Assembly: GCA_038231275.1 (NCBI GenBank)
Contig: JBBRLQ010000007.1
Location: 224,001-288,000, forward strand
Direction: 5' to 3'
DNA: 64,000 nt
From: Polyangiales bacterium
Lineage (GTDB): Bacteria; Myxococcota_A; Polyangia; Polyangiales; Polyangiaceae
Under the pieces are notes generated by a model. That model made no database searches. It saw only the letters and a list, made by a program, of their open reading frames with translations, and was not told the origin of the DNA. Shown here piece after piece: positions 412-27,996 of this stretch (position 1 is its first letter; each line of letters opens with the position of its first letter). Position numbers and translations under genes: made by a program.

Positions 412-1446
412 CTAGAAGGAGCCGGCGACGAACGCGCCCGCAGTTCCAGGGCCAACCGCCGGAGCGAGGTGGAGGCGCGCGGCCTCGTTGCCCTTCTCCC
501 GGGGCGCCGTGAAGTAAAGGACCGCGCCACCCGCGACGAGGACCGCGCCGCTGACGAAGAACACGGTGGAGAGGAGCGCGTCTTTCTTCGCCGTGTCGTT
601 CTTCGCGACGGCGTCCTTGTTCAGCGGAGCTTGAGGGGTGCCGTCAGGGTTCGTGCACCCCGTCGGGTAGCTTCCGCCGCACGCGCTCTTCACGTCGCTC
701 TTGGCGCCGGTGGCGAGGAGGCCGAAGACGCTGCCCACCGCGAGACCCGCGACGCCGACGCCGCCGACCACGATGCCCGCGAGGCGTCGCCCCGCGCCGA
801 CGTCGGACCCCTCGGGCTCGAGCGGCCCGCCGAGATCGACCGGGATGGCGGGGAGCTCTGCGCCGGCGGGGCCCTGCACACCGGGCTTGCTCCACGGCGC
901 GCGGTTCTTCGCGGTGACGTCGATGCGGTGCGCCTGCCCCGGCTCGACGGCGTAGCTCGTCGCGAGCTGCGCGTAGTCCACGTCGGCGACCACGCGGCCG
1001 TCGATGGAGACCGCCAGCTCGCGGACGTTGGTCGGCAGAATGATGCTGAGCTTCACGACCTTGGGCTCCAGCTCGGCGATCGCCTTCTGCGCCGCTTCGC
1101 GCCGCTCGGTGTCGTGCTTCTGGACGGCGATCTGCTCGGCGAGCTTGAAGTTGTTCCACGCCTCGGCGTTGCGCTGCTCGGCGCGCGAGCACTCGGCGAG
1201 GTTGAACCGCGCACCGACGCTCTGCTCGGAGCGCAGGCTCTCGATGAAGAGCGGGATCGCCTCCTTGCAGTTTCCTTGCTCGACGTATTTTCGTGCGGCG
1301 AGAAAATCGCGCATCGCGAGCTGGTGCTTGGCAGGCGAGACCTCTTGGGCCGCGGCGACGCTCGGCGCACACACCGATAGAGCAGGGAGGAGCACGAGCC
1401 AGGCTGCCGACGACGGCGAGGTGCGCATGGATCTCATGGGCCTCAT
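412..1446 (-). CDS. Exported TPR / PEGA-like protein with C-terminal hydrophobic hairpin and terminal Phe
   Basis: Signal peptide (AAWLVLLPALSVCAPSVAAAQ), TPR-like helices (ARFNLAEC), beta domain (LAVSIDG), Gly-rich hydrophobic segments, ends AGAFVAGSF; start set to ATG at 1446, just downstream of the kinase stop. Confidence 0.8.
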   Translation of the reverse strand: MRPMRSMRTSPSSAAWLVLLPALSVCAPSVAAAQEVSPAKHQLAMRDFLAARKYVEQGNCKEAIPLFIESLRSEQSVGARFNLAECSRAEQRNAEAWNNFKLAEQIAVQKHDTERREAAQKAIAELEPKVVKLSIILPTNVRELAVSIDGRVVADVDYAQLATSYAVEPGQAHRIDVTAKNRAPWSKPGVQGPAGAELPAIPVDLGGPLEPEGSDVGAGRRLAGIVVGGVGVAGLAVGSVFGLLATGAKSDVKSACGGSYPTGCTNPDGTPQAPLNKDAVAKNDTAKKDALLSTVFFVSGAVLVAGGAVLYFTAPREKGNEAARLHLAPAVGPGTAGAFVAGSF

Positions 1447-1453
1447 CCTAGCC

Positions 1454-2947
1454 TCAAAACTTATCGAGGTTGGTGGTCGACGGAGGTTTGGGAGGCGGCG
1501 CCGTAGGAAGAGGCGGAGGAGGGGGTTGCGGCAGCGGAACCACCGCCACCGGCTTCGGGGGCGGCGGCCTGCGCGCACCGCCACCGGCACCGGCACCGCC
1601 ACCGCCGGGGGTGATCGGCGCGGGCCGCGGCGTGAGCGTTGCGATGGGCGCCATCGTCGCGATCGGGGCGACGCCGGCGTCGGAGGCGGGCGACGTCGCG
1701 AGCGGCGAGACCGGCTCGGGCATCGCGGGGCTCACGTCGACCGCAGGCGGCGGAGCCGAGTGGGCGGCCGCCGCGCCGCCATGATCCCGTCGGCCCTGGG
1801 CGAGGACGACCACGACCACGACCGCCAACGAGCCCAGCGCCGCCGCAGCAAAGCCCGCGATCCGCAGCGCGACGGTGCGTGACGCGTGCATCTTGCTGGG
1901 CTTCGAGTCGAACGAGGCCGCTGTCTTCGTGTCGCTGTGCACAAGCGTCTCGTCGAGCGCACCGGCGTTCATAGTCCGCGCCGACGCCACGTCGAACGAG
2001 CGTCGTGACGGCTCGGCCGGCAGCGCGTGCGCGGTCGCGAGGACCCCGCGCACGCGTGACGCCGCGCCCGCGGCCGCCGTCCCGCCGAACGGCTCCAGCA
2101 CGTCGGCCAGCTCTCCCACGTCGTCGTATCGCAGCGACGGCTCCTTCTCGAGGCAGCGCATCACGGCCTGCGCGAGCGCCGCCGGCAAGCCCAGCCGAAC
2201 CTCGTTCGGTGGCTTCGGCGCCTCCTTCAGCACGAGCGCGCAGAGCATCGGGACCGTCGGCGCATCGAACGGCACCGTCCCGGTCAAGAGCTCGTAGAGG
2301 CACACTCCCAAAGACCAGATGTCGGTGTGGCGATCGACGTCGCGCGACGCGCGCATCTGCTCGGGGCTCATGTACTGCGGCGAGCCCATCACCGCGGTCG
2401 TGCGCGTGAGCGCGTGGTCGTCGCCGCTCTCGACGTGCTTCGCGAGGCCGAAATCGAGCACCTTCAGCAGGGGCCGGCCGTCGACGCGCTGCGCGAGGAA
2501 GAGGTTCCGCGGCTTGATGTCGCGGTGGATGATGCCGCGCGCGTGCGCCTCGGCGAGCGCCTCGCACGCCTGGAGGACGAGGGCGACGGCGCTCTCGTAC
2601 GGCTGCGCGCCCGACTCTTCGAGGAGCTGGCCGAGATCCTTGCCGGTCAGGAACTCCATCACCATGTACGGCGCGCCGTCGGCGAGCCGCCCGGTGTCCT
2701 GCACGCGCGCGGTGTGCTCGCTCTGGAGGCTCGCGGCCGCGTTGGCCTCTCGCTGGAAGCGCGCCACGCTCTCGCCGTCCCGGAGCGCCTCGGCGCGCAT
2801 GAACTTGATGGCGACGCGCTTGTTCAGCGTCTTGTGCCGCGCCTGCACGACGACGCCCATACCCCCCGAGCCGAGCACGCGCTCGACGAGGTACTTGCCG
2901 TCCAGGACATCGCCAGGCTTGACGGATTCGTCGAGTCGGTTGCTCAT
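1454..2947 (-). CDS. Hanks-type Ser/Thr protein kinase with TM helix and Pro-rich tail
   Basis: LGSGGMG, VAIK, HRDIKPRN, DFG and GSPQYMSPE motifs; start MSNRLD at 2947. Confidence 0.95.
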   Translation of the reverse strand: MSNRLDESVKPGDVLDGKYLVERVLGSGGMGVVVQARHKTLNKRVAIKFMRAEALRDGESVARFQREANAAASLQSEHTARVQDTGRLADGAPYMVMEFLTGKDLGQLLEESGAQPYESAVALVLQACEALAEAHARGIIHRDIKPRNLFLAQRVDGRPLLKVLDFGLAKHVESGDDHALTRTTAVMGSPQYMSPEQMRASRDVDRHTDIWSLGVCLYELLTGTVPFDAPTVPMLCALVLKEAPKPPNEVRLGLPAALAQAVMRCLEKEPSLRYDDVGELADVLEPFGGTAAAGAASRVRGVLATAHALPAEPSRRSFDVASARTMNAGALDETLVHSDTKTAASFDSKPSKMHASRTVALRIAGFAAAALGSLAVVVVVVLAQGRRDHGGAAAAHSAPPPAVDVSPAMPEPVSPLATSPASDAGVAPIATMAPIATLTPRPAPITPGGGGAGAGGGARRPPPPKPVAVVPLPQPPPPPLPTAPPPKPPSTTNLDKF

Positions 2948-3044
2948 GCGGGGGATCGAAGCGGGAGGCGCGTGAAAGCGACCTCTCAGCGTAACATCAT
3001 CGACGGCGCCGGAACGAAGTCCGCGCCGAAGGGTAGGAGCAGGT

Positions 3045-4469
3045 GTGGTGAAGGTACGAGTGGTAGGTGCAGGGCTCGCGGGATGCGAAGCGGCGTGGCA
3101 GCTCGCCGAACGCGGGATCGACGTCGAGCTGATCGAGCAGAAGCCCCTCGCGCGGACGCCGGCGCAGACGAGCGATTGGATCTGCGAGCTCGTGTGCTCC
3201 AACTCGATGCGCGGCGCGGCGCTCGTGAACGCGGTGGGCCTCTTGAAGGAGGAGCTCCGTCGCGCCGGCTCGCTGATCATGGCGTGCGCAGAAGAGGCTC
3301 GTGTGCCCGCCGGCGGCGCGCTCGCCGTCGATCGCGAAGTGTTCGCCGAGAAGGTGACCGCGAAGATCGCCGCGCACCCGAGGATCGCGCGCCGCGCGGA
3401 GATCGTCACGAAGATCCCCGACGCGAGCCCCGACGCGCCCGTCATCCTGGCCACTGGGCCGCTCACCGGCGACGCGCTCGCCCAAGACCTCGCGCGCACC
3501 GTCGGCGCCGAGCACCTCGCCTACTACGACGCGATCGCCCCGATCATCGCAGCGGACTCGATCGACTGGGACAAGGTCTTCAAGCAGTCACGCTGGGGCA
3601 AGGGGGGCGAGGATCCGAACGCCGATCCCGGCGCCGCACGCGACGCGACCGCGCTCGGCGACGAGGCGTACGTGAACTGCCCGTTCGACGAGGCGCAGTA
3701 CCGCGCCTTCGTGGCGGCGATCGTCGCAGCCGAAAAAGTCGAGCCGCGCGCGTTCGAGGAGACGAAATATTTCGAAGGGTGCCTCCCCATCGAGGTCATG
3801 GCGTCGCGCGGCGAGATGACGCTGGCGTTCGGCCCGATGAAGCCGGTGGGGCTGACCGATCCGCGGACCGGGCGCCGTCCGTTCGCGGTGGTGCAGCTGC
3901 GGCCCGAGGATCAAGCGGCGACGTCGTACAACCTCGTGGGCTTCCAGACGCGCATGACCTACGGCGAGCAGCCGCGCGTCTTCCGGATGATCCCGGGCCT
4001 CGAGGAGTGTGAGATCCAGCGCTTCGGCAGCGTGCACCGCAACACCTTCGTCGACGCGCCGAAGCTCCTCGACGAGCGGATGCAGCTCCGCGCGCGGCCG
4101 GGGGTGTTCCTCGCGGGGCAGGTCACCGGCGTCGAGGGATACGTCGAGAGCTGCGCGGGCGGGCTCGTTTGCGCGATCCTCCTCGCGCAGTCGCTCACGG
4201 GGCGCCCTTTCACGCCGCCTCCGGAGACGACGGCGCTCGGCGGAATCCGGACGCATCTGATGCGCCCGCAGCCGAAGTTCCAGCCCTCCAACATCACGTG
4301 GGCCTGCATGCCCCCGATCTCCGATCGACGGCTGAAGAAGCGCGATCGCTACGCGGCGATGTCGGCGCGCGCGCTCGTGGACGTCGAGGCGTGGCTCTCG
4401 TCCGCGCCGCTCGCACGGATCGCGCGCGCAAAGCCGCCGGCTGAAGCGCCGGCCGTTCTGGTATCGTAA
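3045..4469 (+). CDS. trmFO: Folate-dependent tRNA (uracil-5-)-methyltransferase TrmFO
   Basis: [57 protein letters not shown]. Confidence 0.95.
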
Positions 4470-4483
4470 CCGGCGAGGGAACG

Positions 4484-5104
4484 TTGGCCGCATCGAAGGA
4501 AAATCAAGCCAAGGCGCGCTCCGTCGTGCCGCCGGGGGACGATGTCGGCGCCGCCGAGCTCGGCCGCGGCGTCGCCGAGAACCTGCGTCAACGTCGCAAA
4601 GCGCGCTCCATGTCGCTCGACGATCTCGCGCGCGCGTCCGGCGTGAGCCGCGCGGCCCTGTCGCAGATCGAGACGTGCAAGAGCAACCCGACGCTCGGCG
4701 TGCTCTGGAAGATCGCCGTCGGACTCGGTATCCCCTTCGCCGAGCTGATCGGCGCGCCGCGTGGAGGCGTCTCGGTGCTGCGCCGCGCCGACGCGCAGAT
4801 CCTCCGGTCCGTCGACGGAAAGCTCGAGAGCCGCGCGCTCGCACCGGCCGGCGCGTCGTCGACCGTCGAGCTTTACGAGCTCCGCCTCTCCGCGCGCTCC
4901 ACGCACACGTCGGAGCCGCACGCCGCCGGCACGCGCGAGGTGCTCGTCGTCCTCTCGGGCGTTGCGCGCATCCAGGTCGACGACGAGAGCTTCGAGCTCC
5001 AGGCCGGCGACTCGATCGCGTTCCCCGCCGATCGCCCGCACGCGTACGAGAACCACGGCGGCGCCGAGGCGCGCTACCACAACGTCATCGTATACGAGCG
5101 CTGA
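4484..5104 (+). CDS. XRE-family HTH transcriptional regulator with cupin domain
   Basis: SLDDLARASGVSRAALSQIE..NPTL HTH; C-terminal cupin (GDSIAFPADRPHAYEN). Confidence 0.9.
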   Translation: MAASKENQAKARSVVPPGDDVGAAELGRGVAENLRQRRKARSMSLDDLARASGVSRAALSQIETCKSNPTLGVLWKIAVGLGIPFAELIGAPRGGVSVLRRADAQILRSVDGKLESRALAPAGASSTVELYELRLSARSTHTSEPHAAGTREVLVVLSGVARIQVDDESFELQAGDSIAFPADRPHAYENHGGAEARYHNVIVYER

Positions 5105-5999
5105 CTTCGCCGGCGGAGGTCGTGCGGCCCCTCACGAGCTCGAACGCGACGCCGGCCTCTTCGAGCCTCCGCGACGTCGTACGGATCGCGAGGGCCCCGA
5201 CGTCGCAGCCGACGAAGGGGCGGCCGAGCGCAGCGGCGGCGACGAGCGCAGTGCCGGAGCCGCAGAACGGATCGAGGACGAGCCCGCCCTCTTCGGTCGA
5301 CGCGCGGACGATGCGATCGAGGAGCTTGAGCGGCTTCTGCGTGGGGTAGCCGGTCGTCTCGCGGCGGAGCGGCGTGTTGCAGTGCATCGCCGGGCAATCG
5401 GTCCACACGCTGCCGAGCGCGCGCCCGAGATCCGCGTAGTAGCGGTACGTCTTGCCGCCGATCGTGCGGTCTCGGTAGCGGCGCCCGCCTTCGTCGGACT
5501 TCTTGAAGTGCATCGACAAGCTCGTCGGCGCGAAGCTCTCGCGGAGCGCGGGGTCCTTGCCGTTCCACACCCAGTCACCGGCGGGATCCTTCGCGTAGAG
5601 AAGGAGCGTCTGGTGGGTCATGCCCGGCCCACGACGGCCCTTTGCGCCGTTGCCGGGGACCCACACGATCTCCCCTAAAAATGAGGGCTTTCCGAAGAGT
5701 CGATCGCAGACGATCTTTGCCTCGTGGACCGCGCGTTGATCGAGGTGGAGCCACATCGTGCCGCGCGGCGAGAGCAGCTCGCGCGTCACGACGAGGCGCT
5801 CCTCGAGCCACGCGAGGTACGCGTCGAAGGAGGGCCACCGATCGTCGTACGCGACGGCACCGGTCGCGCGATGACCGCGGCCCTCTCGCGCGGCGAACTG
5901 CGCGCCGACGGCGAACGGAGGATCGAGGTACGCGAGCATCGCGCTGCTGGGCGCGACATGATCACGCAGGCGCGTCGCGTCGCCGTGGACGAGTCTCAT
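5085..5999 (-). CDS. Site-specific DNA methyltransferase (N6-adenine/N4-cytosine, beta class)
   Basis: Catalytic DPPF precedes YPTQKP and the SAM motif LDPFCGSGT; ATG overlaps the upstream stop (ATGA at 5996-5999). Confidence 0.9.
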   Translation of the reverse strand: MRLVHGDATRLRDHVAPSSAMLAYLDPPFAVGAQFAAREGRGHRATGAVAYDDRWPSFDAYLAWLEERLVVTRELLSPRGTMWLHLDQRAVHEAKIVCDRLFGKPSFLGEIVWVPGNGAKGRRGPGMTHQTLLLYAKDPAGDWVWNGKDPALRESFAPTSLSMHFKKSDEGGRRYRDRTIGGKTYRYYADLGRALGSVWTDCPAMHCNTPLRRETTGYPTQKPLKLLDRIVRASTEEGGLVLDPFCGSGTALVAAAALGRPFVGCDVGALAIRTTSRRLEEAGVAFELVRGRTTSAGEVSARIR

Positions 6000-6847
6000 C
6001 GGGTCCCCGCGGACGGCGCCGCGCCGTCGATCGGCCGGAGCAGCTCCAGCGCGAGCTCCGTGTCCGAGGGCGCTGTCGCGTCGGCGACGGGGTCCATCGC
6101 GATCCAGTGACGAGTAGGCCCCGTCGCCTCGCAGCCCTGCGCGATCTCCTCTGCCGAGCACTGCGTGCGCACGTGGACGTGATCGTCGTGAACGCCGCCG
6201 GGCACTGGCTGGAGCATTGCCTCCTGCGCGCGCAGCATTACTTCGCCGCTCTCGCCGCGCGCCTGCGCCCACTCGAGGAGGATCGCCTCGACGGTCCGAC
6301 TCGCGAAGATCCACTGGATGCGCGCGTCCGGGTCGGTGACGAGCGCCCTCACGAGGAGCCACTGCCGCTCGACGTCGAAGCGGAGGAAGCGGTGATGCAC
6401 GTCGTCCCACGCGAGGCCGTCCTCCTGCACGTGCACGAAGCCGGGGCTCTCCACCGGCGCGCCGTCGAGCGTCGTCATGTAGAGGAGCAGATCGGCGTCG
6501 CGCCCCGTCCGATGCGAGAGGTGGGGCATGAGGCGGCCGCCCGACCGCACGCTCAGATCGCCGACCGATAGCGTGCCTCCGGGACGTTCGCGCGCGACGG
6601 TCTCGGCGGCGCGCTCGATCGCCTGGACGAAGCGCGTGGCGCCGAAGTGCCGCTCGTCGTCCCGCAGCCACCGGTAGCCATTGCCGGTGCGCGGGAGAGC
6701 GCTGCCGTTGGTGAGCACGCCGCGGTGCGGCATTCCGATCGGTCCGCGAAGCTGTGGAGAAAGCGGGCTCGGGGCGCGCGCGCAGGATACGGCGAGCGCC
6801 GCGAAAATCGCGATCAGGAGCGGCCTGTACGGGCGCGCGGCGTCCAC
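5996..6847 (-). CDS. Penicillin-insensitive murein endopeptidase (MepA/LAS family), probable lipoprotein
   Basis: VGDLS..GG...HLSHRTGRDAD and HDDHVHVR zinc motifs; lipobox-like LAVSC. Confidence 0.85.
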   Translation of the reverse strand: MDAARPYRPLLIAIFAALAVSCARAPSPLSPQLRGPIGMPHRGVLTNGSALPRTGNGYRWLRDDERHFGATRFVQAIERAAETVARERPGGTLSVGDLSVRSGGRLMPHLSHRTGRDADLLLYMTTLDGAPVESPGFVHVQEDGLAWDDVHHRFLRFDVERQWLLVRALVTDPDARIQWIFASRTVEAILLEWAQARGESGEVMLRAQEAMLQPVPGGVHDDHVHVRTQCSAEEIAQGCEATGPTRHWIAMDPVADATAPSDTELALELLRPIDGAAPSAGTR

Positions 6848-6988
6848 GCTTCTCCTCTACACCGTGCGGCCGCGGTGCACAAAGTGCGCGTCAAAAATTC
6901 CGTACGATCGTCGCAAAAAAGTAGCGCTTCGACGCTTGCGGCGCGCACCGAAGGGGAGGATCGTCTTCGCGGGTGGGGGGAGGTTCGA

Positions 6989-7252
6989 ATGGTGCTCAAG
7001 GTGGTTCCCGAGCTGAAGTACACGCGGCCCGTGCCGAGCTCGCGGCTCATGCGGGCGGGCGCGCTCGCTGCGGAGATCGAAGCGCTCCCCAACGCGTTTG
7101 CGGCCGAGGAGACGAAGGGGGCGAGCGCGTCGGTGCTCTACCAAGTCCGTCTCGCGAAAGGGCTCACGCAGAGCCTCATTGACCAGCTCGAGGAGCTCGA
7201 AGGTGCACCGTCCTCTGCGCGCGCCTTCGAGGCCGCGGTGAAGGCCGACTGA
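6989..7252 (+). CDS. Small hypothetical helical protein (87 aa)
   Basis: ATG preceded by GGAGG; plausible amino-acid composition; fills the intergenic gap. Confidence 0.55.
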   Translation: MVLKVVPELKYTRPVPSSRLMRAGALAAEIEALPNAFAAEETKGASASVLYQVRLAKGLTQSLIDQLEELEGAPSSARAFEAAVKAD

Positions 7253-7280
7253 TCGCGCGCGCGCCCCGCGACTGCGCCGA

Positions 7281-7757
7281 CTATTTGCAGTAGCCGCGCG
7301 CGTTGCAGCCGGTGGCGATGCATCCGGCGTCGGACGCGCCGTTCGTGCAGTCGGGGAGACCGGTGCACGCCTTGGTGCACCACGCGCCTTGGCCTCCGAC
7401 GAAGCAGACCGAGAAATTGGGATCGGTGCACTCGGTGGGATCGGGGCCCGTCGCGGCGGCGGTGCACGAAGCGCCGAAGCTGCCGAGGGCCGCGCACGCG
7501 CCGTAGAGCGCGTCGGGGGCCGCGCCGTCGTGCGGACCGTCCGCCACGTGCCCGTCCTCGACGCCCACTCCCCCGTCGCCGCCGTCGCCGCCGTCGCCCG
7601 TGTTGCCGGTGTCGCCCGACGTGGCCGCGTCGCCGCCGCTCCCACTCGAGCCGCTGCTGCCGGAGCTGCTGCTACTGCTGCACCCGAACGCAAGGGCGAT
7701 CGAGGATCCCGCGGCGGCGAGCCAGAAGACCGGCGATGCGAGGATTTTGCGGTTCAT
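7281..7757 (-). CDS. Cys-rich lipoprotein with Ser/Gly linker
   Basis: Lipobox AFGC, poly-Ser/Gly spacer, C-terminal Cys-rich domain (WCTKACTGLPDC). Confidence 0.8.
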   Translation of the reverse strand: MNRKILASPVFWLAAAGSSIALAFGCSSSSSSGSSGSSGSGGDAATSGDTGNTGDGGDGGDGGVGVEDGHVADGPHDGAAPDALYGACAALGSFGASCTAAATGPDPTECTDPNFSVCFVGGQGAWCTKACTGLPDCTNGASDAGCIATGCNARGYCK

Positions 7758-7858
7758 CGGGGCAGGACAAGCAAAGCAGCGGCGAACGATTCGCGCAAGC
7801 GCGCGCGCCTGGATGTAACAACTCGCGACGCCGACCCTCGGTGTCTCCCGGCGTCTTC

Positions 7859-10480: not shown

Positions 10481-10535
10481 CGTGCGCGCACGATTCCTAC
10501 CACATCGGGACCGTTCGAGGCCGGCCGGGCCGGGC

Positions 10536-11186: not shown

Positions 11187-11288
11187 CCCCTCGAGAATGC
11201 CACGGCCCGCCTCGTCGTGCCTCTTCTCTCACGTGCCTGCGCCCGCGCGCGTGCATGTGCCCGACCACCCACGTCCCCGCCAACTACC

Positions 11289-11888: not shown

Positions 11889-11926
11889 GTCCGCCACGTT
11901 ACCTCTCTGATAAAGAGGAGTCACCC

Positions 11927-13555: not shown

Positions 13556-13556
13556 G

Positions 13557-14702: not shown

Positions 14703-15786
14703 CGAGGCGCGCGGTCGTCTCGGCCGTCGAGAGTGCGTCGACGTTTTCGTGGTAGCCGAGCGCCACGACGTCGCGGTCCTCGCGCGAGATCAGCTTGTCC
14801 AAGCCGACACGCTTCAAGCACGCGCCGGCCACGTCGAGGGCGGAGATGCCCGCGACGAGCGCCGCGCACGCGACCTTCCGTATCCCGCGCGCCTCCGGCA
14901 TGTCCTGCTTGTTGATGGACCCCAGGCTGAAGAGCAGCCGCGAACCGAGGACGATTGCCTCCAGACCCGGCGCCTCGGCGAGGCGTGCAAGCGGCTTCGG
15001 GAGGTACGCGCGGCCGAGGTGCGGCGCGAGGGCCACTGCGTCGGCGCCGCGCAGGAGGCGAAGGCGAACGAAGTCGCGCGCGTCGTCGGGGAACCTGTGC
15101 GTCGTGCGCGCGGCCGGCTGGAACACGACGGGGACGCCGTTCTTCTGGAGCTCGAGGCCCAGGACCTGGCAATTTCCCCGGTAGAACGCGCCAGAGAGGA
15201 CGTACCGCGCGCGCTCGAAGGTCTCACGACGGAACGCGACGTTGTTCGCGTAGAAGTTCCGCGTGCATCCTTCGCCGAGGGGGCTCGGAAAATACATGAA
15301 GTCGATCGTCGTCGCCGCGGTGCCCAGGAGGTCGCCGCGGTAGCACGTGCGACCGGCGACCGCGTGGACCTCCTGATCGTCGAACGGCTCGGTGAGTAGA
15401 GCGAGCCAATCGTTCTCCGGCCAGCAGTCGGCGTCGCCGAAGACGATGACGTCGGCGGTCGTCGCCAAAAATCCGCGATTCTTCGCCTCGTAGTAGCCGG
15501 TCCCCGCGGGCATCGCGACGAACGTGATGCTCCGCGCGGCGGCGCGCATGAGGCGTGCCTGGTCTTCTTCGCGGAGCCCGTCGTGCGTGACGACGAGCTC
15601 GGCGAGCGACGCGAGGCCGGTCGTCTGCGCGCGCAGGTGCACGAACAGCTCCTCGAGGCTCTCGGTGACGCGCAGGAGCGTTTCGCTCCGCTGCGCTTCG
15701 CTCCACTCAGGCGGCCGTCCGTCGGGCGAGCGCGCGGCGCCGTGCAGGTTGTTGGTCTCGAGGACGAGGGACACGGACGAGGTCAT
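14683..15786 (-). CDS. Glycosyltransferase family 2 (GT-A)
   Basis: GYYEAKNRGF, IVFGDADC (DxD), ANNVAFRR. Confidence 0.85.
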   Translation of the reverse strand: MTSSVSLVLETNNLHGAARSPDGRPPEWSEAQRSETLLRVTESLEELFVHLRAQTTGLASLAELVVTHDGLREEDQARLMRAAARSITFVAMPAGTGYYEAKNRGFLATTADVIVFGDADCWPENDWLALLTEPFDDQEVHAVAGRTCYRGDLLGTAATTIDFMYFPSPLGEGCTRNFYANNVAFRRETFERARYVLSGAFYRGNCQVLGLELQKNGVPVVFQPAARTTHRFPDDARDFVRLRLLRGADAVALAPHLGRAYLPKPLARLAEAPGLEAIVLGSRLLFSLGSINKQDMPEARGIRKVACAALVAGISALDVAGACLKRVGLDKLISREDRDVVALGYHENVDALSTAETTARLATPPPG

Positions 15787-16939
15787 TGGCTTCACGGGAG
15801 GCTCCTTGTTCGGCGAGGGTGACGAGATCGAGGAAGGCGTCCGCCCAGGCGTCGTGGACGTCTTCGGCGGATCCTTCGAGCGCGCGGAGGTGGGTGGCGG
15901 TGACGGCGTCGAGCGCGCGGTCGAGAGCGCCTTCGAGCCCGCCTTCGGTGGCCGTCGACGCGAGAGGGACGGCGGCGAAGGGAGCGCGCGTCCGCGCGAG
16001 GGCGCCGGCGTTACGGAGCTGCTCGGGTTGATCGCCGAGCAGCGCGACGAGCGGCGTCCCGAAGACACGCGCCTGCGCGAGCGCGCCCATTCCAGCGCCC
16101 GACACGAGCACGTCGGCGGCGCGCACGACGCTCGCGAGATCGGGATCGGCCGCGCGCCACCCGGGACGCTCTGCGTAACCCTCGCCGACGGCGTGCACAC
16201 GGAAGCCGCGCCGCGCGAGCGCGCCTTCGAGCGCCGCGGCGACCGCAGGATCGTGGAAATGCGGGTTCAGGTAGACCGCGGCGAGCCGATCGCGCGGCCC
16301 GAGGCCCATCGCCGCGCGCACCTCCGCCGGCGTACGCGAAGGGGAGGGGAGGATCGGCGGGAGCACGATCGCGCGCTCGTCCGCGTGTGCCACCGGATCG
16401 ATCGTGTGCATGATGCACGCAAAGGAAGCGTCGCGCATCCGGCGGAGTGCGCGCTTGTAGAGGCGGTCGAACCACGCCGGCGCGCGGCCCGTGAAGTTCT
16501 CGTGCGCCGCGCTCCAGATGTTGTCGCCGAAGACGTGCACGACGCGCATCCTCGACACGAGCGGCGCGACGAGGAGCGCCGGGTGGAGCGAGTCGCACAC
16601 CACGAAGGCCGCTCCGCGCGCGAAGTGCCGCAAGAAGAGGAGATCGCGGAGGCCGCGCGTCGGGTCGACGTAGTAGCGGAGCACGCAGGCGTCGGTCGCC
16701 GCGCGCGCCATGTCGTGGCACCCCGAGAACGCGACCGCGAAGTGCTCGCTCAGGAGCCGACTCGGCGTGCCCATCGCCGCCAGGAACGCCTGCCCTTCGC
16801 GCGACGTCGTCACCACGTCCACGTCGACCCCGCGCGCGCCGCACAGGCCGCGGACGAGGTGCGCGCGCATCAGGTGACCGCGCGCGTCGGCGAGGGCGAG
16901 GTAGACGATGCGCGGCCGGACAGCGGTTGCACGAGCCAT
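15707..16939 (-). CDS. GT-B fold glycosyltransferase (GT1/GT28-like)
   Basis: N-terminal ADARGHLMR; C-terminal ADVLVSGAGMG...GTPLVAL...PEQLRNA. Confidence 0.75.
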   Translation of the reverse strand: MARATAVRPRIVYLALADARGHLMRAHLVRGLCGARGVDVDVVTTSREGQAFLAAMGTPSRLLSEHFAVAFSGCHDMARAATDACVLRYYVDPTRGLRDLLFLRHFARGAAFVVCDSLHPALLVAPLVSRMRVVHVFGDNIWSAAHENFTGRAPAWFDRLYKRALRRMRDASFACIMHTIDPVAHADERAIVLPPILPSPSRTPAEVRAAMGLGPRDRLAAVYLNPHFHDPAVAAALEGALARRGFRVHAVGEGYAERPGWRAADPDLASVVRAADVLVSGAGMGALAQARVFGTPLVALLGDQPEQLRNAGALARTRAPFAAVPLASTATEGGLEGALDRALDAVTATHLRALEGSAEDVHDAWADAFLDLVTLAEQGASREANDLVRVPRPRDQQPARRRALARRTAA

Positions 16940-17589
16940 AGCGACACTCCCAGGGTGAAGAGGACAAGCGCGCCGAGGACGCCGAACGCGCGCTCGATGC
17001 GATCGATGCGGAAGACGAGCATCGCGAGATCGTTCTGCTCCGGCGCCGTCACGAGCCGCCTGAGGGCGCGCTCACAGGCGAGGACGTGGCCGCGCTCGTC
17101 CCGCAGGATCTTCTCGAGCATGGGCAGTGTCAGCGTCGCCTTGCCGCGCGCGCGCAGGACGTCGACGTGCCGGTGGAATACCTTCACGCCCATCTTCTCC
17201 ATCCGCCACGCGATCGCGATCAGCGGAACGAGGAGCCCTGCCCCGAAGCGCGGCTCGCTCTCCTTCGCGAGGCGAGCGAGCCGCCGCATCTTCCAGCGGC
17301 TTATCGGGTCCATCTTCCCGGTCGCCTGCGCGTCGCTGCCCGTCAGGACCCGGATGCGCGCGCGGAGGAGCTCGGCGTGGCGCGCCTCGTCGGCGCGGTG
17401 CTTGGCGAGCCAACGCGTGAGCCACGGCGGCGCGCTCTCCGTCACCGGATCGAGCAAAACAGCGCGCTCGGCGTGCTCCTCTCCTTCGAGGTACACGCGG
17501 AGGATGGCGGCCTCTCCGCGTGGCGTGGCGTGGAGCGCGTGCAGCGCCGGTCGCTTGATCGCTTCGAGGGCCCGGTCTCGGACGTTCAT
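16870..17589 (-). CDS. Ferritin-like diiron-carboxylate protein with C-terminal TM helix
   Basis: Ligand pattern E(LEGEE)...DEARH...E(RMEK)...DERGH; hydrophobic C-terminus; start MNVRD at 17589. Confidence 0.75.
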   Translation of the reverse strand: MNVRDRALEAIKRPALHALHATPRGEAAILRVYLEGEEHAERAVLLDPVTESAPPWLTRWLAKHRADEARHAELLRARIRVLTGSDAQATGKMDPISRWKMRRLARLAKESEPRFGAGLLVPLIAIAWRMEKMGVKVFHRHVDVLRARGKATLTLPMLEKILRDERGHVLACERALRRLVTAPEQNDLAMLVFRIDRIERAFGVLGALVLFTLGVSLWLVQPLSGRASSTSPSPTRAVT

Positions 17590-17700
17590 GAGAGAGAACG
17601 TGCGATCCCCGCTTGAACCGCGCGCGCACGGCGCGTGAAAGGTCCTCGGATCGGGTGTGAACGCGGCGTGAAACGCGGCAAAACGTGCTAGGAAACCGGC

Positions 17701-18108
17701 ATGTTCACGATCAAGAAGATCGACCACGTCGCCGTGTGCGTGAGTGACATCGACGCCGCCGCCGCCAAGTACAAGGAGGTCTTCGGCCTCGAGGGTCGCG
17801 AGCGCGAGGTCGTCGCGTCGCAGAAGACGGAGGCCATCCTCCTCCCGATCGGCGAATCGAACATCGAGCTCATCAGCCCCCGCGGGAACGACGGTCTCGT
17901 GAAATTCCTCGAGAAGCGCGGCCCGGGCCTTCATCACATCGCGATCGAAGTGGAGGGGATCGAGGCGGCGCTCGCGTTCTTGAAGGGCCTCGGCGTCCCG
18001 CTCATCGACGAGACGCCTCGTGCCGGCGCGCGCGGGCACAAGGTCGCGTTCGTCCACCCGAAGGCCACGGGCGGCGTCCTCATCGAGCTCGTCGAGCCTT
18101 CGCACTGA
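17701..18108 (+). CDS. mce: Methylmalonyl-CoA (ethylmalonyl-CoA) epimerase, VOC family
   Basis: KIDHVAVCV, IELISP, KFLEKRGPGLHHIA, FVHPKATGGVLIELVE. Confidence 0.9.
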   Translation: MFTIKKIDHVAVCVSDIDAAAAKYKEVFGLEGREREVVASQKTEAILLPIGESNIELISPRGNDGLVKFLEKRGPGLHHIAIEVEGIEAALAFLKGLGVPLIDETPRAGARGHKVAFVHPKATGGVLIELVEPSH

Positions 18109-18222
18109 CGGGCGACGGCTCGGCTCTGGCAAACCGCGCGTAGGGGCTATCTTTTTCGGGCGTCCATCCTGTACCCTGACGCGAGATTTCGAAGGCGTTC
18201 CCACCCGAGGAGCAAGGGACAC

Positions 18223-19317
18223 ATGGCGCGAGAGTCCAGGGTCGTTGGCAAGTTGGTCGCCGCCGTGATGGCTGGCCTCATCGGCGTCTCGTACGGCGGC
18301 GGCGCCACGCTGGTGTCCTCGGCGTACGCGCAGACCAAGCCGGCCACCGCGAAGCCCGCGGCCGCGGCGCCCGCACCCGCCGGCGGCGCAGGCGCGCCCG
18401 CGAAGATCGACGCGAAGAAGGCGTACACCGACGGCGAGAAGAAGTTCAAAGCGAACGATTTCGCGAACGCGCTCGCCGACTTCCTCGCCGCCGACACCGT
18501 CAAGCAGACGCCGCAGGCCGCCCGTTACATCGGCCTTTGCCACGACAACCTCGGCCACCCGCAGGACGCGGTGGTCGCCTACGAGCGCTTCCTCGCCGAC
18601 GTGCCGCCGAAGATGGCGGAGCAGGGTGAGGAGATCAAGAAGCGCGTCGCCGCGATCAAGGCGATCCCCGGCAAGGTGCACGTCGAGACCACGCCGCCCG
18701 GCGCGACCGTCGCGCTCGACGGCAAGGTCCTCTCGGCCGTGACGCCGACTGACGTCGAGGCCACGCCCGGCCGCCACTCGATCAAGCTCTCCGCCGACGG
18801 CCGCGTCGCGCAGGAGAAGGACATCGAGGTCGCCTTCGCGTCGAAGCAGGACCTCAAGGCCGATCTCGAAGAGAAGCCGATGCCGACCGCGCCGCCGCCT
18901 CCTCCGCCCGAGCCGGTCGCCGCCGTGCCTCCGCCGCCCCCGCCCGCGCCCGTCGCCGACAAGGGCTCGAGCATGGTGCCTGCGCTCATCACCGGCGGCC
19001 TCGCGGTCGTCGCGCTCGGCGTCGGGACCGTGTTCGGCGTCATGGCGCTCGGCGACAAGAGCGACTTCGACAAGAACCCGACGTCCTCGAAGGCCGACGA
19101 TGGCGAGAACCACGCGCTCATCGCCGACATGGCGTTCGGCGTCGCGGTCACGCTGGGCGTCACGAGCGCCGTCCTCTTCTTCAGCAGCGGCTCGTCGAGC
19201 GGCAGCGCGAAGGCGGCCCCGCCGGTGCTCGCCGCAAAGGCGACGCCCAAGGCGTTCTCGGTCGCCCCGATCGTCACCCCGCACGGCGGCGGCGCCGGCG
19301 CCACCTTCCGGTTCTGA
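18223..19317 (+). CDS. Exported TPR-PEGA protein with hydrophobic hairpin and terminal Phe
   Basis: Signal peptide, TPR (AVVAYERFL), PEGA (VETTPPGATVALDGK...PGRHSIK), Pro linker, ends GGGAGATFRF. Confidence 0.85.
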   Translation: MARESRVVGKLVAAVMAGLIGVSYGGGATLVSSAYAQTKPATAKPAAAAPAPAGGAGAPAKIDAKKAYTDGEKKFKANDFANALADFLAADTVKQTPQAARYIGLCHDNLGHPQDAVVAYERFLADVPPKMAEQGEEIKKRVAAIKAIPGKVHVETTPPGATVALDGKVLSAVTPTDVEATPGRHSIKLSADGRVAQEKDIEVAFASKQDLKADLEEKPMPTAPPPPPPEPVAAVPPPPPPAPVADKGSSMVPALITGGLAVVALGVGTVFGVMALGDKSDFDKNPTSSKADDGENHALIADMAFGVAVTLGVTSAVLFFSSGSSSGSAKAAPPVLAAKATPKAFSVAPIVTPHGGGAGATFRF

Positions 19318-19325
19318 GGCGATCC

Positions 19326-19781
19326 ATGCGCAAGACCTCGCGCCACCGCATCCTCCTCGCCCTGACCGCGGCCACACTCGCCCTCGCGGGCTGTGAGCTC
19401 GCCGTCGACTTCGATCGCAGCAAGGTCCCCGGCGACGTGACCGACGCGTCGACGGACGGCACGACGGACGGCACGATCGACACCGGCACGGACGGCACCA
19501 TCGATACCGGCACCGACACCGGGACCGACGCGACCCCCGACGTCGTGAACGACACCGGCACGGACACGGGCGCCGACGCGCGCGACAGCGCCACCGACGC
19601 GGGCACCGACGCCGCAGACGCGAACGACGCCGCCGTCGACGCGAACGATGGAGCCGCCGACGCGAACGACGGCGCTGCTGATGCGTCCGATGCGGCCGAC
19701 GCCGCCGCCGACGCCGACGATGGCGCTGCGGACGCCGGAGACGCGGCCGACGCGGTGGCCGACGCCGACGACGCCGGTTGA
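19326..19781 (+). CDS. Acidic low-complexity lipoprotein (D/T/G/A repeats)
   Basis: Lipobox LAGC, then ELAVDFDRSKV, then DTGT/DAAD repeats. Confidence 0.8.
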   Translation: MRKTSRHRILLALTAATLALAGCELAVDFDRSKVPGDVTDASTDGTTDGTIDTGTDGTIDTGTDTGTDATPDVVNDTGTDTGADARDSATDAGTDAADANDAAVDANDGAADANDGAADASDAADAAADADDGAADAGDAADAVADADDAG

Positions 19782-19792
19782 AGGATCGAACC

Positions 19793-20137
19793 ATGACGAA
19801 ACGCGATCAAACGAGCCGCCGCCGCACGCGCGTCCACGCGGCGGTCCTCCTGTTGCTCCTCGGCGTCGGCGCGATCGGCTGCGAGCTCGCCCTCGACTTC
19901 GACCGCACCAAGATCGACGGCGGCGCGCTCGACGCCTCGTTCGGCGACACCGCGCTGCCCGACCAAGTGACGCCGCCCGCGGACGGCACCAGCGACACCG
20001 GGACCGACACCGGCGCCGACGCCGGGACCGACTCCAACACCGGCACCGATACCGGGACAGACACTGGCTCCGACACCGGCTCGGATACGGGGACCGACTC
20101 CGGCGCCGACGCCGCCGATGCAGACGATGCGGGCTGA
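19793..20137 (+). CDS. Acidic low-complexity lipoprotein, paralog of the upstream gene
   Basis: Lipobox AIGC, then ELALDFDRTKI, DTGT/DTGS repeats; ends DADDAG like its neighbour. Confidence 0.8.
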   Translation: MTKRDQTSRRRTRVHAAVLLLLLGVGAIGCELALDFDRTKIDGGALDASFGDTALPDQVTPPADGTSDTGTDTGADAGTDSNTGTDTGTDTGSDTGSDTGTDSGADAADADDAG

Positions 20138-20139
20138 CG

Positions 20140-20159
20140 GCGACGAGGGCTTTCGTCGC
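20140..20159. terminator. Short hairpin between convergent genes (possible terminator)
   Basis: GCGACGA-N6-TCGTCGC inverted repeat between stops at 20137 and 20159; no long U-tract. Confidence 0.3.
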
Positions 20160-21502
20160 TAACCCGAAGCGATCGCTCGAATCGCCTCGCTGACCTTCTC
20201 GACGTCGGGCGGAAGCGCGATCGGCGCGTTCGCGCGGCGGCTCGCGACCTCGAGCGTGCGTTCGTGGTAGCCCATCTTGAACTCGGTGAACTTGAGCGCG
20301 TTGGCGGTCGATACGACGACGACGCGATCGGTCTCCTTGATGAGGCCGCGCGCGCGCAGCTTGAACGTGGCGGCGAGCGCGACGCCGGTGTGCGGGCACG
20401 TGTAGAGGCCCGTGCGATCGGCGCGCGCGCAGGCGTCGGCGAGCTCGTCCTCGCTCGCCTGCTCCACGACGCCATCCATCGCCTTCAGCGCCGCCATCGC
20501 GCGCGGCGCGCTCACCGGACTGCCGATTTGGATCGCGCTGGCGAGGCTGTTTTTTGCCTTGATCGAGGCGACCGTCTCTTCGTGCGCGACGAACGCGCGG
20601 TACATCGGGTTCGCGTTCTCGGCCTGCGCGACGCAGAGGCGCGGTAGACGATTCGTCAGCCCGAGCTCCTTCATCATCGTGAACCCGGCGTACAGGGCCG
20701 CCGCGTTTCCCAGGTTGCCGCTCGGAAGGACGACCCAGTCGGGCACCTCCCAGTCGAACTGCTGCGCGATCTCGACCGCGACGGTCTTCTGCCCCTCGAT
20801 GCGGAGTGGGTTCATCGAGTTGGCGAGGTAGACGAGGTCCCGGCGGGCGAGCTCCTTCACCACGGTCATGCAGCCGTCGAAGTCGGTGTCGAGCGCGAGG
20901 ACCGTCGCGCCGTGGGCGAGCGGCTGGACGAGCTGCGCCGTCGACACGAGGCCGCGCGGCAAAAGAACCGCGACGGGAAGACCGCACGCAGCGCCGTACG
21001 CCGCGAGCGACGCGCTGGTGTCGCCGGTCGACGCGCACGCCACCACGCGCGCCTTCAACGCGCCCTCGGCGATCGCCTGGCGCACGACGCTGACGAGCAC
21101 CGTCATGCCCAGATCCTTGAACGATCCGGAGTGCGCGTTGCCGCACTGCTTCACCCACAAATCGCCGATGCCCATCTCCTTGCCGAGGCGCTCGGCCCAG
21201 AAGAGGTTCGTGCCGCCCTCGTCGGTGGACACGATGAGATCGTCCGGCACCTCCGGCGCGACCCACTCGCGCTTGCCCCACACGCCCGAGCCGTACGGCC
21301 AGGTCGTGCGCTTGTAGCGATCGTCGAAGAGCTTGCGCCACGCGCTCGCGGTTCGGGTGCGGAGCGCCTCGAGATCGTGACGCACCTCGAGGAGGCCGTC
21401 GCACGTGGGGCAGCGGTAAATCGGCTTCGTCAGCGGCCAGCTGCCCTCGCAGCCGTTGAAGCAGCGGAAGCTCGCCTGAAAGCGAACGGCGTCGCGCGGC
21501 AT
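20159..21502 (-). CDS. thrC: Threonine synthase (PLP, fold type II)
   Basis: [10 protein letters not shown] (PLP Lys), [25 protein letters not shown]. Confidence 0.9.
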
Positions 21503-21506
21503 GAGC

Positions 21507-22679
21507 TTACTGGCAGGTGAGGTAATGCGGGTTTGACGACGGGCGGCACTTGGTGCCGGCATACATCGAGCAGTCGGCGTCGACGCAGCAGACGTCGGTG
21601 CAGACCTTCGCGACCGGATCGCAGAAGGCGGTCTTGCACTGCGTTCCCGACGTGCACGCGGTCCCGACGACGCCGCTGCCGGGCGGTCCGTCCGGGGTCT
21701 CCGCGTTGTGCAGGCACGTGCCGAGGTACTCGGGCGCGCCGGAGGTCTGGAGGTACGCGCACGTGCCGAAGCCGGACGAAGGCGGCGTCATCGCGAGGCA
21801 GTTGGTCTTGCCGCACCCGTGCGGCTTGCACTCGGCGAAGCTCGTCGTGCCGTAGCAGATGCCGCTGTTGCAGTCGGCGGAGACGGCGCAGATCTGATCG
21901 TTGCCGACCGTTCCGGGCGGCGGGACCGCGCACGCGAACACGTTGTGCCCCTCGACGAGCGTCCGGCGGCAGATGCCGGGCGCCGCGCAGTCGGCGTCGG
22001 CGCAGCACGTGTCGGTGCACACCTTCGCGGTCGCGCCCGCGCACACGCCGGAGCGGCACGCCTCGGCGGTCGAGCAGCTCGTGCCCCCCTTGGTCGCGCC
22101 GTTCGCCGAGCCGCGCTGGAGCAGCGTGGGTCGCACGCAGTACGTGCCGCCGGTGCCGGGGCCGTAGCAGACCATGTCGTTCGGGCAGTCTTCGGATTTG
22201 CAGCAGGGCTTCGTGCAGAGCGGACCGCTCGTCTTCACCGCGTCGCCGAGCACCGCGTCGCCGCCGCAGAAGAACTCGGGCTTGCACTGCGTGTTGGTGA
22301 GGCAGCTGCACCCGAGCTCGCCGTTGCAACCGCCCTCGCCGCTGCTCTCGAACGGAAGGGGAGAGTCGACCTCGACGTCGGGCAGGATCGTCCCGTCCTC
22401 GACGCCGCTCTCGCTGGGGCCCGCCTCGGGCACGTCGACTGTGGGAACGCAGATGTGCGAGATCGTGTCGCACACGAGGTCCGCGCCGCACGGCGTCTGG
22501 GGGCACGAGCCGACGCAGACGCCAGCAGGCGAGCAGATCTGTCCGCCGGGGCACTCGTTGATGCCGCCTGGCGCGCACGCGAAGGACGGGAGGTCCTTCG
22601 GCACGAGCGCCTCGCAGCCGGCCGCGCCGAGCATCCCGAGCACGCCGGCGAGGGCGATGCTGGCGATGAAGCGACGCAT
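21507..22679 (-). CDS. Cys-rich repeat lipoprotein
   Basis: Lipobox AAGC-E; repeated CTxxCCxxxDC units (3 clear copies); ATG overlaps the upstream TGA. Confidence 0.85.
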
Positions 22680-23515
22680 CAGAACGATCCCCGCAGCATC
22701 AGGACTCCACCTCCACGCACGTCCGGCACAGGCACCACCGACACGCGCGCTTGGGTGCTCGCTTGCGGGCTCGGGGCCTGGGTGACCTTGGTCCGACCGA
22801 AGTAAAGATACGCCGCGACGGCCGCCGCGACGACCCCGATTCCCAGGCTGACGTCGGCGATGATGGCTTCTTTGTGCGCTTGCGACGTTTTTTGCAGGAG
22901 ATCGTCGTAGGTTCCGTCGCGTCCAGTCACGAAGGATTTCGGTCGATCGCTCACCGCCTTGACGCCGAACACGGCCCCCACGCCCACCCCAGCGACCGCC
23001 AGCGACGCCGCGGTGATCGTGAGCGCGTCGACACGCCCGCGCGGCGGAGGCTCGTTCTTCTTGTCGTTGGGCGGCGTCGGGGTCGGGGTCGGGGTGGGCG
23101 TTGGAGTCGGCGTCGGCGTCTCGCGCTTGGCGCCTTCGAGGCGCTTGATGAACGAGTCGGCCTTCAGCTTCTCCAGCGGCGTCACGTCCATCTGCGCGTA
23201 CGCGCGAAACCAGCGGAGCGCGTCGTCGATGTTCCCGAGCTTCTCGTTCACGACGCCGAGGTTGAAGGCGAGCTCCTTCGCGTTCGGATCGAGCGCGCGC
23301 GCCGCCTCGAGCTCGCCCTTCGCCTCGCGGTAGCTGCCCTGCGAGTAGAGCTCCCGAGCGCGCTTGTAGTGCTCCTCGGCCTTTTGTTGGGCGGCCGGCG
23401 GCGTCGGCGTGGCGCTCTGCGCGAACGCGGGGAGGGTGGTCCCCGTCATGGCCACGAGTGCCAACATCGCGACATAACGTCGCTTTGTCCCCGCGCGGCG
23501 GCCAACGGCACCCAT
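22679..23515 (-). CDS. Exported TPR protein with (TP)n linker, hydrophobic hairpin and terminal Phe
   Basis: Signal peptide ..PAFAQ, TPR (LAFNLGVVNEKLG), (TP)n, ends GGGVLMLRGSF; start uncertain. Confidence 0.8.
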   Translation of the reverse strand: MGAVGRRAGTKRRYVAMLALVAMTGTTLPAFAQSATPTPPAAQQKAEEHYKRARELYSQGSYREAKGELEAARALDPNAKELAFNLGVVNEKLGNIDDALRWFRAYAQMDVTPLEKLKADSFIKRLEGAKRETPTPTPTPTPTPTPTPPNDKKNEPPPRGRVDALTITAASLAVAGVGVGAVFGVKAVSDRPKSFVTGRDGTYDDLLQKTSQAHKEAIIADVSLGIGVVAAAVAAYLYFGRTKVTQAPSPQASTQARVSVVPVPDVRGGGVLMLRGSF

Positions 23516-27985: not shown

Positions 27986-27996
27986 TACCGTCGGGT

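Follow-up and report, generated by a model that had tools for sequence, protein, structure and literature searches.

Results

Three related envelope proteins in one window

The window analyzed here is a 64,000-nucleotide (nt) stretch from a Polyangiales bacterium (contig JBBRLQ010000007.1, positions 224,001 to 288,000 of the forward strand), with a G+C content of ~70%, taken from a draft genome of 9.28 Mb in 164 contigs. It encodes three proteins, here called members 1, 2, and 3, that belong to a large, unnamed Myxococcota family of membrane-anchored envelope proteins with tetratricopeptide repeats (TPR). Member 1 is encoded immediately behind a Ser/Thr kinase, and the genes for members 2 and 3 are followed by lipoprotein genes. 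These genes are as follows (positions are those of the window; lengths in amino acids, aa):

412..1446, minus strand: member 1, 344 aa; signal peptide, TPR, beta domain, two helices, hairpin; kinase-coupled, no downstream lipoprotein
Parts of member 1, minus strand: TPR 1060-1335; beta domain 877-1056; helix H1 670-795; helix H2 511-618; beta-hairpin 418-477, ending GSF; stop codon 412-414
1454..2947, minus strand: Hanks-type Ser/Thr kinase, 497 aa; 7 nt upstream of member 1
18223..19317, plus strand: member 2, 364 aa; signal peptide, TPR, PEGA, Pro-rich spacer, two helices, tail ...GATFRF
19326..19781, plus strand: lipoprotein, 151 aa; 8 nt after member 2; lipobox LAGC; mature N-terminus CELAVDFDRSK; Asp/Ala/Thr-rich repeats
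19778..20137 (start codon uncertain), plus strand: lipoprotein, tandem paralogue of 19326-19781; mature N-terminus CELALDFDRTK
21507..22679, minus strand: Cys-rich lipoprotein, 390 aa; 1-nt overlap with the stop codon of member 3; mature N-terminus CEALVPKD...; 46 Cys in the mature part
22679..23515, minus strand: member 3, 278 aa; signal peptide, TPR, (TP)n spacer, two helices, tail ...MLRGSF; no beta domain

The first-pass annotation had assigned a shared architecture to the three genes, and on this the translations, their alignment, the Pfam matches, and an AlphaFold2 (AF2) model agree. Common to all is a C-terminal module of ~100 aa, made of two Gly-rich hydrophobic helices and a beta-hairpin with a final Phe: between a first hydrophobic, Gly-rich segment (...GVG.VFG...) and a second one (...L[YF]F) lies a hydrophilic loop, and the tail that leads to the Phe is short and reads ...AGAFVAGSF in member 1, ...GAGATFRF in member 2, and ...VLMLRGSF in member 3. 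Aligned over their full length, the proteins are 26-29% identical, with V-G-x-V-F-G, L-x-F, and the terminal F invariant. Pfam recognizes the TPR of member 3 (TPR_16, 40.5 bits with a cut-off of 32.7; TPR_2, 33.5 bits with a cut-off of 27), and the TPR scores of members 1 (21.5 bits) and 2 (16.3 bits) fall below the cut-offs. Residues 150-217 of member 2 are a PEGA domain (PF08308; 33.3 bits, cut-off 20.8); a beta domain is predicted at residues 131-190 of member 1, yet gives no PEGA match. The last ~110 residues of the three proteins match no Pfam or NCBIfam model, and six isolated C-terminal modules found nothing in Pfam at E values up to 10, in a search whose HMMER filters drop most matches above ~0.1.

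In the AF2 model of member 1 (mean predicted local distance difference test score, pLDDT, of 87; 109-row alignment), five TPR helices occupy residues 38-129, the beta domain residues 131-190, two helices residues 218-259 and 277-312, and the beta-hairpin residues 324-343; a second model, of residues 128-344 (pLDDT 77.7), agrees with it. These monomer models contain a single two-stranded hairpin and two long helices, and no transmembrane beta-barrel. The nearest solved structures of the TPR domain, as modeled, are short three-repeat TPRs, C-terminal-peptide binders among them: the designed CTPR (Z 11.5; root-mean-square deviation 1.4 over 85 residues), STI-1 (Z 11.0), Tah1 (Z 10.2), and Hop TPR1 (Z 8.8), to which Foldseek adds CHIP/STUB1. 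Fold searches with the C-terminal half gave no specific relative, only helical hairpins of a generic kind (Z up to 8.8) and Ig-like sandwiches (E at least 0.5). With residues 128-344, antiparallel helical hairpins of the same generic kind (Z 7-9) took up the match lists, and SlyB was not among the matches listed. A profile search of PDB sequences returned TPR proteins only.

A large family without a model

The resemblance among the three genes goes far beyond chance, as a genome-wide search shows. A hidden Markov model (HMM) built from the three C-terminal modules and run for three iterations over 78,198 stop-to-stop open reading frames (ORFs) converged on 80 ORFs of this genome, every one of which carries the module at its extreme C-terminus. 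The proteins are ~190-425 aa long, mostly 250-350, the ORF parts upstream of them being non-coding in frame. Of the 80, 64 end in F and four in W (together 68/80). About 76 of the 80 have a signal-peptide-like N-terminus, as judged by a crude hydrophobicity check of our own, used in place of a dedicated predictor. These N-termini resemble type-I signal peptides ending in A-x-A; a loose lipobox fit occurs in 12/80, mostly within the hydrophobic core. The loop between the helices holds exactly two Cys in 61/80, typically as H-C-x(3-5)-C-D. In member 1 this motif lies at the tip of the long antiparallel helical hairpin (511-795, minus strand), as in the 61 paralogues that share it; members 2 and 3 are without it.

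Outside this genome, a whole-protein profile found matches in 21 of 21 related genomes (13-111 per genome), and 35 of 51 genomes sampled from the phylum matched a profile of the C-terminal half. A cluster library of 1.84 billion representatives yielded up to 31,165 clusters (50% identity) at E 1e-30 or better, a figure to be taken as a maximum, given the noise that the TPR repeats contribute; the best 150 library matches are nearly all 310-370 aa long and align over their full length. Relatives that bear a name are all called "hypothetical protein," except for three "kinase" entries and one TPR protein, and the ESM Atlas neighbors are unnamed Myxococcota clusters. The module was not described among the papers listed on myxobacterial kinases in combination with TPR, periplasmic, or PEGA features, in a library without most subscription journals. 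As neither Pfam nor NCBIfam has a model for the ~100-aa module of this large family, there is a clear annotation gap.

Family genes lie downstream of Ser/Thr kinase genes

The strongest gene linkage, overlooked in the first-pass annotation, is to an upstream Ser/Thr kinase, one of which stands beside member 1. The kinase encoded at 1454-2947 matches PF00069 over residues 20-273 (157.9 bits, E 4.3e-46), and HRDIKPRN and DFG can be read in its translation; a single transmembrane (TM) helix at ~363-381 is followed by a 116-aa Pro-rich outer tail ending in ...TTNLDKF. A kinase ORF was counted as a neighbor if it lay on the same strand and ended no more than 200 nt upstream, which is the case for 49 of the 80 family genes and for 126 of 7749 others (odds ratio, OR, 96). 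The 126 non-family genes directly downstream of same-strand kinases may include other partner families or members missed by the HMM. The gene calls behind the neighbor counts came from a crude caller based on third-codon-position G+C (GC3), which missed the Cys-rich lipoprotein gene of the window. The same caller placed two spurious ORFs at 21550-22167 (plus strand), opposite that gene (21507-22679, minus strand), the composition there being unusual.

Kinase and partner are tightly spaced: among the 47 pairs that could be taken from the gene caller, the overlap is 4 nt in 14, and the spacing stays within +/-20 nt in 36. After the kinase domain and a linker, 43/47 linked kinases have one TM helix, and the tails beyond it are 76-195 aa long (mostly 83-131), rich in Pro, Thr, and Ala, and without a recognizable sensor domain. 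Only their last 6-20 residues are conserved. Orthologues of the window kinase end in ...PKKDPGSDF or similar, and among the paralogues the tail ends fall into classes: ...LFDDRK-like ends, a Cys-bracketed C-PP[YF]T.D..G....K..C loop, and ...D-P-Y/W.

These classes co-vary with the partner. Two Cys in the last 30 aa of the kinase and at least four Cys in the N-domain of the partner occur together in 11 pairs, the tail feature alone in one, the partner feature alone in none, and neither in 35; for a D/N/S-P-Y/W tail and a partner lacking the loop Cys pair, the counts are six, none, two, and 39. Pairwise distances of kinase domains and partners are likewise correlated (Mantel r 0.48, reached by 0/5000 permutations), although both results are expected if gene pairs duplicate as units.

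An orthologue-alignment search with gene 1 located three orthologous loci in metagenome-assembled Myxococcales genomes, where a search with the gene 1 protein alone had found no loci. Two of these extend far enough upstream to show the neighbor, and both keep the kinase. In orders of the phylum other than this one, a kinase adjoins the family gene at 7/19 loci (four upstream, three downstream).

Fused forms were looked for among longer proteins. None of 120 proteins from a kinase search carried the module, and no longer relative of gene 1 was found, which is weak evidence. Kinase matches of ~800 aa from Sorangium had been considered as fusions, and those inspected proved to be dual-kinase proteins; long profile matches (~900 aa) have extra TPRs only. 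The Sorangium and related kinases of ~800-865 aa (P0101, P0113) have tandem kinase domains, one TM helix, and a Pro/Ala-rich tail, which in P0101 ends in a Cys-bracketed ...C-NPPY...C peptide.

Thirty-five same-strand downstream neighbors within 300 nt were compared as candidates for a recurring third gene, and the biggest cluster comprised four genes (C17:28387-29748, C4:390896-392293, C21:115072-116424, and C17:41165-42130), three of them FHA-like by eye. FHA domains read phospho-threonine.

Lipoprotein genes lie downstream of family genes

The first-pass annotation had also reported lipoproteins immediately downstream at two loci, and there they are, separated by 8 nt from member 2, which has two lipoprotein genes behind it, and overlapping the gene for member 3 by 1 nt. 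Each of the three lipoboxes (LAGC, AIGC, and AAGC) is preceded by an N-region that is basic and by a hydrophobic core; here and below, lipoboxes were called with a pattern of our own, [LVI][ASTVI][GAS]C, in place of a dedicated predictor. The lipoprotein of 21507-22679 has no Pfam or NCBIfam match. The two genes at 19326-20137 overlap by ~4 nt, the first 11 mature residues of their products are nearly identical, and both bodies are acidic and of low complexity; the pair looks like a recent local duplication. An N-terminus CELALDFD had been given to the direct partner of the hairpin protein, in error: it belongs to the second lipoprotein (~19778-20137), behind the first.

Genome-wide enrichment of lipoprotein genes downstream, the check named in that annotation, is present. 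For each called gene, the DNA between -80 and +330 nt of its stop codon was searched for ORFs opening with a lipoprotein signal, and such an ORF was counted as adjacent if it started within -50 to +30 nt of the stop; this was so for 21/80 family genes and 346/7615 others (Fisher OR 7.5, p 8e-11). A reading of no enrichment (8/75 downstream lipoproteins, 9.8% background) was discarded as an artefact of start-codon calling, the scan after every stop having reversed the outcome. Counting both kinds of neighbor, 37 of the 80 genes have the kinase only, 12 the kinase and a lipoprotein, nine a lipoprotein only, and 22 neither.

The mature N-termini of the linked lipoproteins are alike (CELAVDFDR, CGLLVGVDWDR, CALVAGLKDRD, CAIIASLGDR, CNAILGN..., and CSALLGGSDLDD), with the recurring motif C-x-(x)-2-3 hydrophobic-(G/D)-x-D(F)(D)R. 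Downstream ORFs fitting it follow 18/80 family genes and 37/7615 other genes, counts that are partly circular because the motif was written after the data had been seen. In four small genomes that represent further families of this order (G+C 0.49-0.62 at these loci), 6/15 module genes tightly precede a lipoprotein, with the N-termini CQLAVDFDRS, CQFLLDFDRD, CARILGLDEY, CTLLNAPDRN, CQLVVNPDNS, and CNLAIPNG. Thus the N-terminal motif that the first-pass annotation had proposed does recur, in other families too, but the Glu at +2 that it had included is not conserved: only 15 of 721 lipobox genes have it, and CEL..DFD occurs in the two tandem copies only.

Likewise, the bodies described as unrelated between loci are so inside the window, while Cys-rich bodies recur across the genome: 10 of the 21 linked lipoproteins have an acidic Gly-rich linker and then 21-59 Cys. 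Five Cys-rich bodies gave sub-threshold matches to the NCBIfam model "MXAN_6577-like cysteine-rich protein," and one RCC1 propeller and two sub-threshold lamin-tail domains were also seen among the bodies. Lys at +2, an inner-membrane retention signal in Myxococcus, is found in 0/21 linked lipoproteins.

Membrane location

The location of the module in the envelope leans weakly to the inner membrane, by little more than an even call. Each of the two helices has 19-23 hydrophobic residues, with sums over 19 residues of +1.2 and +0.7 kcal/mol on the Hessa scale, used here and for the kinases with approximate coefficients. Helices of this length and hydrophobicity are expected to stop in the Sec translocon, which would leave them beside the TM helix of the kinase. 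Several features count against such an inner-membrane hairpin. The kinase TM helices are more hydrophobic (Hessa sum -0.76) and contain 12% Gly, as against 24% and 19% in the two helices of the module; the loop has its conserved Cys pair and is net acidic, with both flanks net basic; and the chain ends in F or W after alternating hydrophobic residues, as in the signals of outer-membrane proteins. Judged as a beta-signal, that is, an aromatic last residue with hydrophobic residues at -3, -5, and -7, the tails are hydrophobic at -5 and -7, but position -3 is Gly in 48/65. Distant relatives have an aromatic or hydrophobic residue there, with tails like ...FDLRF and ...RVRW. The density of Lys plus Arg is flat: 0.120 ahead of helix 1, 0.116 between the helices, and 0.127 beyond helix 2. 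The loop Cys pair could form a disulfide staple if the loop lies outside the cytoplasm, or a metal site like the zinc hook if it lies inside, and the Pro-rich kinase tail of ~100 aa could reach a partner in either the inner or the outer membrane.

Neighboring genes in the window

Divergent from member 3 is an ORF at 23593-24261 (plus strand; 222 aa, with a signal peptide), followed by one at 24628-26067 (plus strand; 479 aa, hydrophobic at its N-terminus); Pfam gave no match for either at E up to 0.01. The window also has another Ser/Thr kinase ORF, at 27637-29634 (plus strand; E 2.4e-87 with our own kinase profile), with no family member adjoining.

Discussion

We propose, at about even confidence, that the family consists of envelope adaptors that couple lipoprotein sensors to Ser/Thr kinases and so would form the middle subunit of a split receptor kinase. 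Each protein, exported as predicted by means of a cleavable signal peptide, has a TPR domain of three repeats, in most cases a PEGA-like beta sandwich, and then a spacer rich in Pro; two Gly-zipper helices arranged as a hairpin would anchor it, and it ends in a membrane-proximal beta-hairpin with its final Phe. The TPR domain may dock the conserved C-terminal peptide of the ~100-aa Pro-rich tail of the single-pass kinase encoded upstream, and the membrane-proximal part may hold the conserved peptide right after the lipidated Cys of the lipoprotein encoded downstream. The lipoprotein body would then be the sensing part, mostly Cys-rich repeats and also an RCC1 propeller, lamin-tail-like domains, or acidic repeats, and ligand-driven clustering of adaptors would gather kinases for trans-activation. 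Each of these binding steps, like the membrane assignment, is put forward from sequence.

Two parts of the protein are candidates for peptide binding, the three-repeat TPR and the membrane-proximal beta-hairpin beside the beta sandwich. As each type of neighbor offers one short conserved peptide, at the C-terminus of the kinase and after the lipidated Cys, an adaptor is the simplest reading. Moreover, one-to-one paralogy at the scale of the kinome, together with FHA-like further neighbors, fits signaling better than transport. A number of observations weigh against the adaptor proposal. Members 2 and 3 have no adjacent kinase, 22/80 members have neither neighbor, and no kinase-partner fusions were found. 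The four small genomes have an upstream kinase at only 1/15 loci, and in other orders of the phylum a downstream lipoprotein occurs at 1/19, there without the motif; the three-part module is therefore lineage-specific. Co-variation of kinase and partner speaks for a linkage long kept, not for binding, and the crude gene calls and the partial circularity of the motif counts belong here as well.

Some of the same data could be explained by outer-membrane oligomers that read the N-terminal motif of the neighboring lipoprotein and flip or display that lipoprotein in the manner of Slam, the kinase link being secondary. A conserved N-terminal motif before varied bodies is the pattern of a sorting signal, and together with the lipoprotein enrichment and the parallel to Slam (a periplasmic TPR and a membrane domain, with a lipoprotein gene adjoining) it favors this account. 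So do the F/W end in 68/80 after alternating hydrophobic residues, the distant tails ...FDLRF and ...RVRW, the loop Cys pair, helices that are Gly-rich and marginally hydrophobic, and the lack of Lys at +2 in the 21 linked lipoproteins; Gly-zipper helical proteins of the outer membrane exist, as described for SlyB and YfgH in one preprint. We nevertheless consider it unlikely. Some 80 one-to-one paralogues per genome, in a copy pattern that tracks the kinome, are unlike an export machinery, and 59/80 genes have no downstream lipoprotein while 49/80 have a kinase. Neither DUF560 nor another barrel is present, AF2 giving two helices and one hairpin per chain. The helices, with 19-23 hydrophobic residues, come close in hydrophobicity to those usual in the inner membrane, and a stop in Sec is to be expected of them; no Pfam Gly-zipper family matches at E up to 10; and the signal peptides are mostly ordinary type-I ones, not lipoboxes. 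An improbable variant, which would join this picture to the kinase, is a trans-envelope relay: a Gly-zipper ring in the outer membrane, with a disulfide-stapled surface loop, would hold or display the variable Cys-rich lipoprotein by its N-terminal peptide, and the TonB-like 100-aa Pro-rich tail of the inner-membrane kinase would dock in the TPR, with dozens of such relays per genome.

If instead the proteins served the adjacent kinases only, whether as membrane-anchored regulators, as pseudo-receptors, or as substrates, the lipoproteins would be co-transcribed and not bound. The kinase link is indeed far stronger (OR 96 against 7.5) and reaches other orders (7/19), which the lipoprotein link does not (1/19), and the class co-variation concerns the kinase tail and the partner N-domain. 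Yet nine of the 80 members, including members 2 and 3, have a lipoprotein and no kinase, and the lipoprotein motif is kept across genomes of G+C ~0.5-0.7 while the bodies vary, which is difficult to account for unless some partner reads the motif; we hold such a kinase-only role to be distinctly unlikely. Very improbable, in our estimate, is a role in stabilizing or spacing the envelope, in which Gly-zipper rings or lipid nanodomains like those of SlyB would form, the TPR would make general protein or peptidoglycan contacts, and both linkages would reflect shared regulation. The Gly-zipper-like G-x-G-x-G-x-V-F-G helices, the 22/80 members with neither neighbor, and the precedent of oligomeric SlyB/YfgH outer-membrane rings are in its favor. 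Massive paralogy and tight, operon-like coupling to kinases are not expected of a structural protein, however, sequence matches to the Gly-zipper Pfam families are absent, and, as weak evidence, the fold-search matches listed include no SlyB-like structure.

Myxobacteria have hundreds of eukaryote-like Ser/Thr kinases, and we counted ~300 in this genome. Many myxobacterial kinases have only a disordered outer tail and lack a sensor domain. About one kinase in six here (49/~300) has a gene for a conserved, unnamed envelope protein beside its own, in many cases with a variable lipoprotein as well, and the putative adaptor-lipoprotein sets are a concrete candidate for the missing sensor. Should the outer-membrane reading be true, the family would represent a novel type of helical anchor in the outer membrane, together with a new motif for handling lipoproteins.

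Comparison with known systems

The family is not a Slam. Both have a signal peptide and a periplasmic TPR followed by a membrane domain, and often an adjoining lipoprotein gene (here 21/80 and 6/15; 185/353 of the Slam homologues). The membrane domain of Slam, however, is the 14-stranded DUF560 beta-barrel, which was sought in vain here with whole proteins at E up to 1 and with C-terminal parts at E up to 10, and its place is taken by two helices and one beta-hairpin. Further, Slams are proteobacterial, whereas the present family occurs in Myxococcota in ~80 copies per genome, mostly linked to kinases.

SlyB and YfgH, as described in the preprint, resemble the family in having two Gly-rich helices as a hairpin beside a small beta domain, and these Gly-zipper hairpins are seated in the outer membrane and form rings. 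They differ in being anchored as lipoproteins, whereas the family has a type-I signal peptide and, in addition, TPR and PEGA; its helices are much more hydrophobic and are separated by a loop of ~37 aa. The family stands outside the Pfam Gly-zipper families.

With the carboxylate-clamp TPRs of Hop/Sti1, CHIP, Tah1, and Sgt2 the family shares a three-repeat TPR and, in the proposal made here, a short C-terminal peptide on a flexible tail as ligand. The putative adaptor is periplasmic, though, with no EEVD-type ligand, and similarity of this kind is common among all short TPR proteins.

TonB and VirB10 are inner-membrane proteins with Pro-rich segments that span the periplasm, and VirB10 also has a helical hairpin in the outer membrane. 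By composition, the kinase tails are comparable, being Pro-rich, ~100 aa long, and uniform, and could cross the periplasm if extended. Unlike TonB, they have no TonB C-terminal domain and end in a conserved peptide of only ~8 aa.

The proposed mechanism is most readily set beside sensor kinases that are coupled to accessory proteins. In RtkS-PpkA (PDB 9k1u), a kinase likewise coupled to an accessory protein by the title of the structure entry, the Foldseek match is weak (E 0.009-0.5). In RcsF-IgaA-RcsC/D and NlpE-CpxA, the input to a membrane kinase comes from a lipoprotein of the envelope or from a periplasmic protein by way of a further membrane protein, as it would here. Those kinases are histidine kinases, however, whereas the present ones are Hanks-type; the adaptor is unrelated; and dozens of modules would operate in parallel in each genome.

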